A stretch of 64,000 nt of DNA from Eledone cirrhosa (taxonomy: Eukaryota). Shown here one piece after another: positions 9,632-61,420 of this stretch. The notes below the pieces were generated by a model, which saw only the letters and a list, made by a program, of their open reading frames with translations, was not told the DNA's origin and did not search any database. Location of the stretch: assembly GCA_964016885.1 (NCBI GenBank), contig OZ024740.1, positions 103,106,001-103,170,000 of the forward strand. Reading direction: 5' to 3'. Position numbers and translations under genes: made by a program. The stretch's first letter is position 1. Each line of letters starts with the position of its first letter.

Positions 9632-10762
9632 ATATATATATCCAAAATTAAGTTAAATTAAGGGTGTCATGTCAGATAGACATGCGCCATGTCACCCGTA
9701 AAATATGCTCCAAGATTCCAATGAATAGATCCGATCATTTTATATCAACTAGAAATTAATTGACATATAAATATATCTAAAATAAACACATGAAACAATC
9801 ACAGGGGATAATTTGTAAAAGTGTGTAAGCACACATAGCTATGTAGGTAACTAAATAAAGTTTAACTAGAACTTCAAAATTAGATACCTTATAAATTGAT
9901 TAATCTTCCTTGTATATATTCAATTAAAGAAATATATTTCACCAATTAATCGATTGGTAAACGACAGTAGCCAGATCCTGTATTTTCAACAAGGAAGAGG
10001 ACTAACCATCTGGTTTACGCATCAAATTCAAATCAGCGACTGGTCAGTAACACGTGCTGTATTTATTAAAAATACTCACATCGTACCAACTTCGAAGCTG
10101 GTACGATGTGTGTATTTTTAGCTATGTGAGCTTACACACTTTTACAAATTATCCCCTGTGATTGTTTCATATGTTTATTTTAGATATATTTATATGTCAA
10201 TCAATTTCTAGTTGATATAAAATGCTCGGATCTATTCATTGGAATCTTGGAGCATATTTTACGGGTGACATGGCGCATGTCTATCTGACGTGACACCCTT
10301 AATTTAACTTAATTTTGGATATATATAAATACGGCTCCTTAATTGTAGATCTAACTCAGTTGAAAGGACTTGACTGCTATTTCTAGTTGTCGATAACCCT
10401 ATTCACGCCACTGGGACGAAGCTGGTACGATGTGTGTATTTTTAATAAATACAGCACGTGTTACTGGCCAGTCGATGATTTGAATTTGATGCGTAAACAC
10501 AGATGGTTAGTCCTCTTCCTTGTTGAAAATACAGGATCTGGCTACTGTCGTTTACCAATCGATTAATTGGTGAAATATATTTCATTAATGAAATATATAC
10601 AAGGAAGATTAATCAATTTATAAGGTACTAATTTTGAAGTTCTAGTTAAACTTTATTTAGTTACCTACATAGCTATGTGTGCTTACACACTTTTACAAAT
10701 TATCCCCTGTGATTGTTTCATGTTTATTTTAGATATATTTATATGTCAATCAATTTCTAGTT
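9632..10762 (+). mobile_element. Non-coding tandem + foldback element (period ~551 bp) with HHR-like motif
   Basis: 9632-10092 is inverted relative to the direct part 10119-10762; hairpin tip near 10092; AGCTATGTG repeats at 10120 and 10671; HHR-like motif at 10514-10608. Confidence 0.7.
10514..10608 (+). ncRNA. Candidate HHR with TTGAAAA (U3-A8) core
   Basis: TCTTCCTTG-TTGAAAA-...-GAAA-TATA-TA-CAAGGAAGA; perfect 9-bp stem I; closing pairs of stem II not evident; inverted copy at about 9904-9998 lacks one A of GAAA. Confidence 0.4.
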
Positions 10763-11368
10763 TATATATATATATATATATATATATATATATATATATA
10801 TATATATATATATATATATATATATATATATATATATATATGTATATATGTATGTATATGTATGTGTATGTGTGTGTATGTGTATGTATGTGTATATATG
10901 TATGTATGTGTATATATGTATATGTATGTATGTGTGTATGTATATGCATGTATGTATGTATATATATATATATATATATATATGTGTGTATATATGTGTG
11001 TGTATATATATATATATATATATATATATATATATATATATATATATATATATATATATATATATATATATATATATATATATATATATGTATGTATGTG
11101 TATATATGTGTTATATTTTAATGTGTGTATGTTTATGTATGTATATGTATGTATATATGTATATATATATATGTGTGTGTGTATATATATATATGTGTGT
11201 GTGTATATGTATGTATATATATATGTATATATATGTGTATATATATATATATATGTGTATGTTTGTAAGTATATATATGTATATATATATATATATATAT
11301 ATATGTATGTATGTGTGTATATATATGTGTGTATATGTATGTGTGTATATATATATATATATACACAC
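10763..11368. repeat. (TA)n/(TG)n microsatellite block
   Basis: Seen directly. Confidence 0.95.
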
Positions 11369-11369
11369 A

Positions 11370-57295: not shown

Positions 57296-60200
57296 TATAT
57301 ATATATATATATATATCATCATCATCACCGTTTAACATCCATTTTTCTACACTAGCATGGGTTAGACGAGTTGTCCTATTGTGAGCAATGCCAGGTCAGG
57401 TGACCATGTCTTGCTCATACAGAACTGATTTTGGCTTGGTTTCTAAGCTGGATGCCATTCCTAATGCCAACCTCATTTACAGTGAGTACTGGGTGCTTTT
57501 TGTCATGACATCTACACAACCACTTTACAGTGTGGGCTGGGTGTTTTTTGTTGTGACACCTACACAACCATTTTACAGTGTGGGCTGGGTGCTTTTTCCT
57601 GTGTCCCCATCACAACCACTTTACAGTGTGGGCTGGATGCTTTTTGTTGTATATATATATATATATACATATACAACAAAAACCATCCAGCTCACACACA
57701 CACACGCACATATATATATATATATATATATATATATATATATATATATATATATATATATATAGCCAGTTGGTGAGTAATATTGCTTTAGGTATCACTG
57801 TCTCATCACTCTATGCTTTTACATTAATTAGATATTCAGTGTTAAAATCCAGAGCTGAAGCTGGTTGTAAACAATTAAAGCTCCAAGCTGGTCATTTGTG
57901 AAACACATGTTATACATGATTACTTTAATATCTCATTCTTAATATTATACACCCACACTTGATAGTTCTTCTTACACTTGTATATTTTCAATAGATGTAA
58001 AAAAAAACAGCATGAAAATCAAAAATTTGATGCTGTTCAATTGAAGTCCTTTGTAATATTTGTTTCAAGCGCTCCCTGTCAACCTTACTAGTAGAAATAA
58101 AGTGTACCAGTAATTAGCTTATTTGAAACTGTTTGATTGCAATATGAAATAAATAAATACAAAATGTTGTCCTTGACATCTTAAATTTAGGGCATGGGAT
58201 TGTGTAGTGGTTATTCAGGTTGGAGGAAAACTAAAATTATCACGCTGTTGAAAATCTAGCTACAAAAAACTTTTCTCGTGAAATCATGTTATTATTGTTC
58301 TGGATTTTTATGATTTTTTTTCATTTATTTCTTGGCTATCCCATACCTATAACACTACTAAAGCTGTACTTTGGGGCCCATAAAATACTGAGTCACTGAG
58401 CCTCCCTCATCTACAGAACTTAATAAAGACACATATCAGTGTGCTCTTCATAGAAACATTCTTGACCATACCCAAAAAGATTGATTACCAATGACTCACT
58501 CACATTATAGCTTCTGGCCTATGTTTCACTGTTTCCTCATTTCATAACTGCTGCCCATCTCCTCTGCACCTCTGAAATAGCTAGTTACATTCCATCTCCA
58601 CTTCTCCACTCCTAATGTATCTCACCATATCAATAAAACTGATCTCAAATAGCCTGGGCTCATCCTTATCTCCTGACTAAACCATGGCTAAACGTTCATA
58701 CAATGCCATACATTTGACAGTCAGTATACACATTTACAAAAACCTCAAACAACAGCTGTTTATTTAACATTAAAAGAAAAATAATAAAGAATCAAGTTTC
58801 TAACACTTTATTGCTGATTTGAAATTGTGATTGATCAAAGAATAAAATTGTATGTGTTGTTTAAAATCTGAAGACATTATTATGAGTTACCTCCCTTTAT
58901 GATCTGAGTTCAAATCCCGCCAAGGTTAACTTTGCCTTTCATCCTTACGGGGTCGATAAAATAAAGTACCAGTAATGCACTGGGATAATTGCTGGCCTGG
59001 TGCCAAAAGTAGAAACAATTATTATAGTAAACAGAAATGATTATGGTATGATTACTTTATCGTCTTTCTTAACGAATCCTCTTTGTCTAAAATAAATTTT
59101 GAAATAATTATAGAAACACTTTAAATAGTTGTGGAGGAAATTATATTACATATTTTTGTGTTTATTTTCTTATAAAAGTATTTTATTTTTCTACCGCAAA
59201 TTTGTTCTAATTTATTTCCTTCAGGGCGTATTAAGGCAAAAGAATATGACTGGAAAGACAGTAATCTTGCATTATTTGGCTCCGACACAGAGAAAAGTGT
59301 TAAAAGTAAGTGTTCCTAATGACACAGTCTCCTGTTCTTGTCTTTTCAAAGCTTTTTTTTTTGGTTTGTTATTTCTGTCTATCTGTAATTTTCTCTTTGT
59401 TTGATGCCTGTGTCTATGATTCTGCATGTATATATGTGTGTGTCTGTGTGTGCCTGTATTTATGTGTGGGTGTCTTCTTCTATTCATGGGATGATCATGT
59501 GGGCAGAATCCTCAAGCACGCCTTCCAGGGTGGTACAAACCATGTACAGTGGCGGAGTTAGCAAGATTAAAAAAAAAGAGTACAGTTGATTGTTCTCGAT
59601 GTTTTGAGTTCACAGGCTCTATTGTCTAAAAATAAAATGGCTAAGTAAAAATAACCCTGGCAGTATTAAACCCCCAAACTATGGTAACGTGAGATGGGTT
59701 TTGCAGAGTAAACTGGCCTGTCCCTCCTTATAGTGCTGCCATCCAGTACCAGGTCCCAAAACTATGGCTACGGTGTTAGATGGGTTAGGCTCCTTGTATT
59801 GGTGCCATCCAGTACCGGGCTCCAAAACTAAGATCCCACGTCAGACGGGTGAGGTTCCAAAACTGTGGTTCTGTTCTTAGGCAGTTCAACACAGCCAGCT
59901 GGCCTGCCTCATAATGGAGTCATCCAGTCCCACATTGTAAATGTGGTTAATGTTAAGAAGGGCATCCAACTGTAAAATACCCAGCCAAATTTACAGTCCT
60001 CGCCGGAGCAAGATACAACATGGCCAACTCTGGCCAGACATGCTTCCCAGCATGGATGACTCGTCTAACTCATGCAAGCATGGAAAAATGTACATTAAAC
60101 AATGATGATGATATATACATATATGTAATATATATATATATATATATATATATATATATATATATATATATATAAGGAAAAGAAATTGAAAATACAACTG

Positions 60201-60744
60201 GAGACTTTTAAATATTATTTGCTTAACCAGTTTCACAATTCTTATGATTTTTCAAAAGTAAAATTGAGATGCAAGGTTTGTGTTTCTGGATGAACATGAC
60301 ATGGTCATCTGACTATGTCATGCTTATACAGAACCGATTTTGGCTTGGTTTCTACAACTGAATGCTCTTCCTAGCGCCAACCTCATTTACAGTGAGTACT
60401 GGGTGCTTTTTGTTGTGACACCTACATGACTAATTTACAGTGGGAGTAGGGCACTTTTGCCATAAACGACCACTTTACTGTGTGGGCTGGTATATATATA
60501 TATATTAGTGAAGTAGAAGATCAACTGTAAGTTCAGTCCCCGTCCCACAGAGTATCATCATCATCATCATCATCATCGTTTAACATCTATCTTCCATGCT
60601 AACATAGGTTAGACGGGTTTGTTCCATTTAGAGGCAAGGTGGGTCGGGTGACCATGTCTCGCTCATATAGGACTGTTTCTGGCTGGTTTTCTACAGCTGG
60701 ATGCCCTTCCTAATGCCAACCACATTTACAGTGTGTGTTAATAT

Positions 60745-61420
60745 GTATATATCAATATATATATATTGATATACATATATGGAATAGAATGAAACGAAAT
60801 TTCATTTCTCACTCTTAGTATGGCACTTACATAAATGTAAGTATGCATGTATGTATACGTACATACATATATGTATACAGATGTACAGTAGTATGTATAT
60901 ATATACATACATGCACACATATATATATGCACGTATCGGTTTACCGAACATTTATTATAATGCTCGGTTTGTTTGTAAACAAACAAACAGCCCGAATTAC
61001 GCCATACAGTGTTCAGGCAACCACGTCACCTTTTTGTTCAACACTGACACAGGAACGATGTACTAGTTTCAAGCTTATTAGCTATCGTCAGCATCGTATA
61101 CCTTCCTGCCAGATGGTTGAACGTCTGAAAGTATATACTTTCCTTATGCATATTAATGGCTGAGCAGCCTAATTTGCATATCGAGTGAGTTTAGTTGGCC
61201 GGGCACACCGAAAACGATAAATGGAATAGAATGAAACGAAATTCAGGCTGTTTGTTTGTTTACAAACAAACCGAGCATTATAATAAATGTTCGGTAAACC
61301 GATACTTGCATATATATATGTGTGCATGTATGTATATATATACATACTACTGTACGTCTGTATACATATATGTATATGTATACAGACGTACAGATTATAT
61401 GTATACATACAGATATACAT
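60745..61420 (-). mobile_element. Non-coding HHR element, 442-bp period, with inverted arm
   Basis: GGAATAGAATGAAACGAAATT at 60781 and 61223; 61246 to about 61390 is inverted relative to about 60845-60992; HHR at 61055-61097. Confidence 0.75.
61055..61097 (-). ncRNA. Minimal type I hammerhead ribozyme
   Basis: ACGATG-CTGACGA-t-AGCT-aata-AGCT-t-GAAA-CTAG-TA-CATCGT. Confidence 0.88.

Follow-up and report, generated by a model that had tools for sequence, protein, structure and literature searches.

The window analysed here, 64,000 nucleotides of contig OZ024740.1 from the 3.0-Gb genome of Eledone cirrhosa, contains six short non-coding repeat units, U1 to U6. On balance, we read them as hammerhead-bearing retrozymes without open reading frames (ORFs) that have two fixed ends in (TA)n and that were likely copied in trans by the enzymes of Hydra-type Penelope-like elements (PLEs), likely from a monomer-length, possibly circular RNA. 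Judged by their sequence, the six units are animal retrozymes without long terminal repeats (non-LTR retrozymes), a published kind already linked to PLEs. The part that appears to be added here is the fixed two-site ends, the foldbacks that pair the two sites, and the paired hairpins.

For each unit, a first look across the genome returned about 2,000 to 4,300 candidates, which are not copy numbers, and the best 40 were scored; short low-complexity matches of U5 were filtered out. With 10 duplicates dropped from the 189 fetched loci, 179 distinct loci were mapped, and positions in them were numbered from the predicted ribozyme cut. All six families were abundant and dispersed over many contigs, and the U3 family was young (99-100% identity). 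We found two fixed 3' end sites, A and B, in every family, 53-118 nt apart, together with scattered 5' ends. The A/B positions were 171/283 in U1, 58/~176 in U2, 82/~191 in U3, 231/312 in U4, 233/286 in U5 and 92/~203 in U6. Two internal start sites of reverse transcription 3' of the hammerhead define the tail of the Poseidon element PAc, and such a tail was called unique to PLEs (PMC11167929). Therefore, by ending at two sites the six units carry a PLE signature directly.

The 179 loci comprised 92 simple arrays, 82 tail-out foldbacks and 5 other patterns. Simple arrays ended at site A in 55 cases, at site B in 34 and elsewhere in 3. The foldbacks were of the A+B type (one arm ending at each site) in 62 cases and B+B in one; none was A+A, and 19 had an off-site end. 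When both ends were on site, each arm had its own site in 62 of 63 foldbacks (binomial p = 7e-18 against a ceiling of one half). The A+B rule was also significant in U3 alone (p = 5e-4), where the query favoured neither site. TA repeats adjoined 193 of the 256 3' ends, and any target-site duplication would be hidden by these (TA)n flanks. The foldback junctions (n = 90) shared letters in 57 cases, were blunt in 5 and contained extra letters in 28, counts that have no control and carry little weight. The 5' ends did not evidently accumulate at the ribozyme cut; some 11 of 256 fell at positions 1-2, near the estimated alignment-edge level (no formal test was made).

Next to the end sites we observed a bulged hairpin of the form YTC...TN-GAR, with a two-base bulge on the 3' side, that starts 2-13 nt after the site as measured from the aligned ends. 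The strict form follows both sites of U2, U3, U4 and U6, i.e. 8 of 12 sites (chance 0.011), and a widened form (bulge TN) adds site A of U1 to make 9 of 12 (chance 0.015 per site in shuffled units); both chance figures are optimistic, since the motif was drawn up with the data in view and later broadened. Most copies kept the hairpin, e.g. 132/133 and 121/124 in the U3 family (the hairpin copy counts of the six units include duplicate loci). The basal pair alternates between C-G and T-A across families. The hairpin was present as well in three Hydra-type PLE families, Hy1 to Hy3, which are described below. It follows site B in the reference copies of Hy1 and Hy2 and site A in 10/18 copies of Hy1, 20/42 of Hy2 and 4/5 of Hy3. 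Seven further hammerhead families, drawn from the flanks and not part of the set on which the motif was built, showed the strict hairpin in five cases, a variant recognised by eye in one and none in one.

A family seen in loci L048, L114, L115 and L280 (cluster 11) has a hammerhead, more than one copy in L048 and L115, and ends that lack the bulged hairpin and resemble the context of site B in U5. It is possibly a second class of retrozyme with a different partner.

The U3 arrays bear on the nature of the template. Across 39 of them (positions covered at least 3 times), 67 variant-array pairs were fixed in all units, 14 were partial and 51 private. Twelve fixed variants were found in no other array, and 7 of these 12 occurred in both arms. 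Since array-specific mutations are common to the units of an array and to both its arms, one monomer template per insertion looks favoured; each U3 insertion, in both arms, looks to have been copied from one monomer. The read-through of the U3 cut site was exact in all 156 cases, and a ligated circle is a plausible template. Template jumping on a terminally redundant linear RNA explains the array uniformity too. In one array (L196), an internal U3 unit carries 61C and 98C, which are fixed in L203, and the preceding unit carries 460C, which is fixed in L207; this mixture suggests a template switch or gene conversion.

At site B of U2, the (CT)2 of the template had grown to at least 4 repeats in 12 of 24 terminal copies, compared to 0 of 31 internal ones. 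The (CT) growth in Hy3 was similarly seen in 6/10 terminal and 0/6 internal copies. From these counts we infer stuttering at initiation; the expansion may also come from later slippage. Among the matches listed for U3, none was an RNA source. Contigs from public runs hold the U2 and U3 families, and one includes the 485-bp tandem joint. The foldback tip of U2/U3 was bridged by no contig among the matches listed, which is no evidence either way, as the individual may differ.

Arms were longer than a full period in 166 of the 179 loci (up to 10.1 units), wrapping round the unit and not entering an ORF, a share that is inflated because the loci were chosen as best full-length matches. Four PLE proteins used as queries had matches in 25 of the 179 loci, and 14 matches lay at most 1 kb from a unit. 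In none of the 179 loci was a unit joined to a PLE ORF: a script found (TA)n between the unit and the match in 13 of the 14 near cases, and inspection settled the last. This was an apparent U6-Hy2 join without TA (L179), which was rejected on reading the sequence, where (TA)n lies between the two. The check for joins to PLE ORFs was negative in these 179 loci; rare joined copies may occur elsewhere in the genome. The original prediction, that PLE enzymes mobilise the units in trans into (TA)n, is supported by this result along with the dispersal, the wrapping and the two-site tail.

Self-comparison and tandem-repeat scans of the window bore out the predicted places and periods: U1 at 9629-10768 (551 bp), U2 at 11991-13140 (528 bp), U3 at 13170-15020 (485 bp), U4 at 30990-32037 (534 bp) and U5 at 60775-61404 (442 bp). 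U6 (54468-54942) is solo in the window, as had been said, but it is tandem elsewhere in the genome, with a period of ~488. The main arms of U1 to U5 measure 1.23, 1.73, 2.85, 1.57 and 1.06 units, respectively, in agreement with the claim of more than one unit in tandem at the five multi-part loci; the surplus of U5 over one unit is only ~25 nt. At all five loci an inverted arm lies 5' of the hammerhead-sense strand, again as predicted. The units are indeed ORF-less, with 31-38% GC and a longest ATG-initiated ORF of 22-106 amino acids (aa), and Pfam had no match for two of the longest open frames (one in U3, one in U5). They do not show the structure of LTR retrozymes, in that the hammerhead is of type I and not type III; no search for a primer-binding site or polypurine tract was made. 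That the units are unrelated held at the level of BLAST, where the best match between units (E = 3e-4) was a 17-nt TA-type match. However, they have the hairpin signal in common, and the tail regions beat shuffles (p<=0.01) in 5 of 28 pairs, uncorrected (U3-U6, U1-U4, U4-Hy2, U4-U6, U4-Hy1). Given this weak likeness, 'unrelated' is too strong.

The 3' end of the left U1 arm (9629-10094, minus strand, 0.85 unit) lies in (TA)n and falls at site B, +283 counted from the predicted cut. The right arm (10093-10768, plus), with an internal deletion near the tip, ends at site A (+171). The U1 hairpin after site A is at 10224-10253 (plus, TG bulge), and a degenerate site-B hairpin starts from 10335. 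In U2, the tandem arm (11991-12904, minus) ends at site A (+58) and the inverted arm (12903-13140, plus) at site B, next to an expanded (CT)n that leads into (TA)n; the minus-strand hairpins are at ~12519-12496 for site A and from 12398 for site B. The inverted arm of U3 (13170-13638, minus) ends at site A (+82), while its tandem arm (13639-15020, plus, units >99% identical) ends off-site at +41. On the plus strand, the U3 hairpin after site A occupies 14092-14127 and again 14577-14612, and the site-B hairpins are at 13723, 14208 and 14693. The tandem arm of U4 (30990-31826, minus) ends at site B (+312) and its inverted arm (31825-32037, plus) at site A (+231), with minus-strand hairpins at ~31065-31040 (site A) and from 31518 (site B). 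The longer U5 arm (60775-61243, minus) ends at site B (+286) and the inverted one (61237-61404, plus) at site A (+230). Finally, the single U6 unit (54468-54942, minus) is 5'-truncated, ends at site A (+92) and has its site-B hairpin from 54841 (minus).

An Rfam scan of the window listed no hammerhead among the best 150 of 162 matches, most of which were microRNA models on TA repeats; we therefore wrote our own descriptor of the type-I hammerhead. With stems summing to at least 10, it had 11 matches in the window, whereas 30 shuffles had 0.2 on average and never more than 1. Clear motifs were found in U2, U3, U5 and U6, each with a palindromic stem III, a feature tied to cleavage as dimers (PMC4209133). 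In the 189 fetched loci, duplicates included, the descriptor was passed by 19/30 loci of U1, 22/30 of U2, 38/39 of U3, 24/30 of U4, 23/30 of U5 and 25/30 of U6, i.e. 151 of 189. One type-I hammerhead, or candidate, per unit had been predicted, and all six units do match the descriptor, U4 weakly and U1 only in other copies. The U4 core (31367, minus) has stems I and II of only 3 bp each. The U1 candidate of the window (10514-10608, plus; core 10523-10529, predicted cut after 10599) fails because stem II is broken. Loci of its family pass through the core UUGAAAA (U3-A8), a natural hammerhead variant (PMC3088659, PMC4209133).

The remaining cores were as follows. U2 cores start at 12657 and 12120 (minus), with C.A at 10.1/11.1 and a GUU cut triplet. 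The U3 cores are at 13937, 14422 and 14907 (plus), with predicted cuts after 14009, 14494 and 14979, and at 13324 in the inverted arm. U6 has its core at 54630 (minus), and U5 at 61091 (minus) with U.U at 10.1/11.1; U10.1-U11.1 has been reported for hammerheads (PMC3088659). Beyond the six units, the descriptor found hammerhead elements at 8989, 15682 and 17678. Free folding of the units recovered the three-way junction only in part, and the circular folding z-scores (-3.0 to -9.6 against 25 doublet shuffles) are merely suggestive.

Hy1, Hy2 and Hy3 are Hydra-type PLEs as assigned by motifs (a C-terminal endonuclease, CxCX5C, DKT, a hammerhead and (TA)n). Hy1 (6205-9095, plus) is 5'-truncated, with a broken reverse transcriptase and endonuclease at 6205-7626, a hammerhead at 8989 and a 3' end near site A (+56). 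Hy2 (15866-17513, plus) is a young, 5'-truncated element with its endonuclease end at 15930-16427; the left of its window arms ends at site A and the right at site B. Hy3 (389-2317, minus) consists of a 3' untranslated region (UTR) and an inverted 5' piece (1704-2317), with its end at site A inside (CT)n(TA)n. The original prediction spoke of coding PLE remnants of the same polarity at 390-2317 and 15864-17500. The polarity was right, but 390-2317 is 3' UTR, with no coding sequence in the window. Both CxCX5C and DKT were found in relatives of Hy1 and Hy2 (in 17 of the 19 Hy2 loci with a long ORF). Relatives of Hy3 showed CxCX5C only, and their reverse transcriptase was not seen whole. The RWK motif had no exact match in the ORFs checked, which have 'RWR' and 'CWR' in its place. 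Pfam did not recognise the Hydra-type proteins; it gave only a sub-threshold GIY-YIG match, at 54989-55405. The end sites from the predicted cut are ~+50/+140 in Hy1 and +24/+113 in Hy2.

Hy2 is young and intact, with its top 150 matches 97-100% identical and several 713-aa frames open. A tail-out pair was present in 13 of 50 Hy2 loci (11 A+B, 1 B+B, 1 ambiguous) and absent from the other 37. We regard Hy2 as a candidate mobiliser of the hairpin-bearing units. It carries a hammerhead candidate near 17357 (17353-17402, plus) with position 4 changed (core CAGAAGA), a form met in 80 contexts. Hy3 has a candidate near 470 (~430-490, minus), also with position 4 changed (core CCGAAGA). U4C is described as a weakened hammerhead variant (PMC3088659).

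Another young PLE, at 54989-56900 (plus), had 30,050 candidates and open frames of >800 aa elsewhere in the genome; by its motifs we take it to be Neptune-like. It has a minimal hammerhead near the 3' end, and in loci that reach the end it stops in (TA)n at one site. Elements without the hairpin, U5 among them, may have this PLE as their partner; the PLE and U5 showed no similarity to each other.

Under the favoured reading, an array would be transcribed, the predicted hammerheads would cut the RNA to monomers, and a host ligase would close these, as for other retrozymes. The enzyme, which in a related PLE is a predicted dimer, would dock on a pair of bulged hairpins that lie ~80-120 nt from each other, and would cleave the two strands of a (TA)n run. 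From each cut end, reverse transcription would then begin on a TA-like part of the RNA, 2-13 nt 5' of one of the hairpins, and would at times stutter. If only one end was productive, the result would be a simple array whose 3' end is fixed and whose 5' end is scattered. If both were, it would be a tail-out foldback that ends at site A on one arm and at site B on the other, with its joint at the meeting point of the two complementary DNAs. Repeated passes round the same monomer would produce arrays of up to 10 units. The parts of this scheme that can be read in the DNA itself are the fixed ends, the A+B rule, the shared hairpins, the read-through of the ribozyme site and the array-wide private variants. 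In U5 the two-site footprint occurs without hairpins; therefore, this unit likely used another PLE partner. More tentatively, one can picture a dimeric, telomerase-related enzyme that docks on the twin hairpins of one ribozyme-made RNA circle, primes from both TA ends at the sites that the hairpins set, stutters over the initial template bases as telomerase does, and makes as many as ten rounds of the circle from either end. The two hairpins would then be the signal by which retrozymes hijack a PLE, and would explain the one-sided tail and the inverted ends; we find this picture possible rather than probable. In PLEs the tail is often at one end only (PMC8557442).

Several observations weigh against the favoured reading. 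The 14 partial variants show that the U3 arrays are not all uniform, and the foldbacks with an off-site end (19 of 82) include the U3 foldback of the window. The mapped loci are best-scoring full-length matches and are biased to full-length, young copies. Apart from separate neighbouring insertions, we obtained no long alignment of any unit to the ends of Hy1, Hy2, Hy3 or the Neptune-like family, and so we name the mobiliser from motif and footprint, not from descent. With regard to the hairpin, apart from the optimistic chance figures, it was found in 0/21 and 0/34 copies at the end sites of U5, whose sole match is at +6. Site B of U1 has only a mismatched, degenerate form, and one of the seven further hammerhead families has no hairpin at its ends. 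Some of those seven are relatives of Hy1 or U6, which lowers their independence. Finally, in vitro work on PAc found that hammerhead mutants left insertion unaffected, that uncut RNA was the main substrate and that the start sites were the same on both strands (PMC11167929). Of nine Xenopus retrozyme dimers, one was cleaved (bioRxiv 10.64898/2026.07.22.740005).

There is one serious alternative, which we consider somewhat unlikely. The same Hydra-type enzyme, with two start sites, would copy a linear uncut multimer or a re-entered terminally redundant RNA; the hammerhead would be a passenger and no circle would form. The normal in vitro insertion of hammerhead mutants fits this well, as does the lack of RNA-seq ends at the cut site (PMC11167929). 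The exact read-through (156/156) suits uncut RNA as well as a ligated circle, the hammerhead cores of U1, U4, Hy2 and Hy3 are weak or variant, and partial tandems are also formed by autonomous PLEs. On the other hand, copying of a multimer would transmit mixed units, yet fixed variants outnumber partial ones by 67 to 14 and seven array-unique variants occur in both arms. A monomer bottleneck is needed, which template jumping supplies and plain multimer copying does not. The retention of descriptor-level hammerheads in 151 of 189 loci also speaks against a mere passenger.

The other explanations we judge far less probable. A different retrotransposon may move all six units, either the young Neptune-like PLE or a long interspersed nuclear element (LINE) with twin priming, the hairpin then reflecting ancestry without function. 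LINE remnants, presumably of the RTE type, are common in the window, the Neptune-like family is likewise young and likewise ends in (TA)n, and U5 has the footprint without hairpins. We still find this improbable, because the hairpin position tracks both end sites across otherwise dissimilar families and those Neptune-like loci that extend to the end have a single stop site. Twin priming predicts that one arm stops where the other arm starts, a pattern that fits only 1 of 16 U3 foldbacks (L209); classical twin priming was therefore rejected. It is quite improbable, too, that the units are leftover terminal repeats of autonomous PLEs grown locally by unequal crossing-over, a scenario found in a 2026 preprint, where 24 of 57 Xenopus retrozyme families were homologous to transposable elements, nearly all of them PLE termini, and local amplification was proposed (bioRxiv 10.64898/2026.07.22.740005). 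The PLE families compared with our units are part of the genome's set, which leaves this scenario some room. The arrays, however, are dispersed, contain fractional numbers of units, and scatter at the 5' end but not at the 3' end, which is fixed. In 166 of 179 loci their arms go round the unit, in none is a unit joined to a PLE ORF, and private variants are common to inverted arms. The units may nevertheless have been derived long ago from a PLE terminus. That foldbacks and tandems are assembly or library artefacts is hardly credible: the arms end at two different family-specific sites with no extension into the flanks, they differ by up to 8% in older families, and the 485-bp tandem joint was found in a public-run contig.

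Non-LTR retrozymes of metazoans, for which circular RNA templates and PLE mobilisers have been proposed (PMC7229834), resemble our units in being short non-coding tandem repeats with GC below 50% and one type-I hammerhead per unit. The units here are longer (442-551 bp against 150-450 bp), and they are known from DNA alone, whereas circles were demonstrated there. The main text of that paper does not contain the words 'inverted' or 'microsatellite', and two-site ends, A+B foldbacks and a shared cis-signal were not found in the text covered. The 2026 preprint concluded that retrozymes are non-autonomous PLE derivatives, with consensus lengths of 51-972 bp, a range that spans our units (bioRxiv 10.64898/2026.07.22.740005). 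Its basis was co-occurrence and terminal-repeat homology, mainly in vertebrates, with local amplification invoked; ours is the insertion footprint together with a hairpin common to units and PLEs, and the PLEs compared show no long homology to the units.

In the Hydra clade, PLEs combine the CxCX5C and DKT motifs with hammerheads and insertion into (TA)n (PMC8557442). Our elements are like this clade in the (TA)n targeting, the hammerheads, CxCX5C with DKT (Hy1 and Hy2), the partial tandems and the inverted 5' copy. The tail is 30-40 bp there, compared to 53-118 bp here. The same paper also has non-autonomous multicopy Chlamys elements, such as MRC1; non-autonomous parasites of Hydra elements and paired hairpins were not found in its available text. 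Poseidon PAc cuts and extends each of the target strands, is predicted to dimerise and has AT-rich targets. Its starts lie in an AC-rich stem-loop at sites that are non-homologous to the target and do not differ between strands (PMC11167929). In contrast, the sites here are TA-like and each precedes a bulged hairpin; within a foldback, one arm nearly always ends at site A and the other at site B. In the literature covered, we found no description of retrozymes with two-site ends, A+B foldbacks or paired hairpins; these families may be present in supplements, Repbase or Dfam, which lie outside that coverage.

The window contains further elements of related kinds. A seventh non-coding hammerhead element at 15250-15813 (plus; core 15682) had 3,086 first-look candidates. 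It ends near +20 and +92 with a hairpin after the first site, many of its copies start in a (TG)n run, and it was tandem in 0 of 25 loci. Short PLE 3' ends in (TA)n were seen at 17514-17706 (minus, Hy1-like, with a hammerhead), at ~22175 (plus, where a hammerhead candidate of another family lies beside an endonuclease remnant) and at 53804-54358 (minus, a GIY-YIG-like C-terminus with UTR). A near-perfect 380-bp palindrome at 56926-57307 (arms 85% identical) lies between two (TA)n runs, has no match to the hammerhead descriptor and is possibly an element like a miniature inverted-repeat transposable element. The broken Rep/helicase frames at 32500-37150 (plus) and 62440-62640 we take, by their motifs, to be of Helitron type. 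Several short frames at 37400-39500 are presumably Gag-protease-reverse transcriptase remnants of an LTR retrotransposon.

So far, the proposal that PLEs mobilise retrozymes has been built only on co-occurrence and homology. In this genome, a two-site footprint and a small RNA signal are common to the non-coding units and to coding elements of the Hydra type, and a young enzyme with an intact ORF (Hy2) stands beside a young substrate (U3). The window brings six substrates together with three families of the Hydra type, one of which offers a candidate intact enzyme, and the exception, U5, is usable as a control. Three questions thus become testable in vitro: what moves animal retrozymes, how PLEs choose internal start sites, and what causes inverted, one-tailed insertions. 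If circles are the template, nature would here provide an example of rolling-circle reverse transcription that is primed by an endonuclease and carried out by a relative of telomerase.

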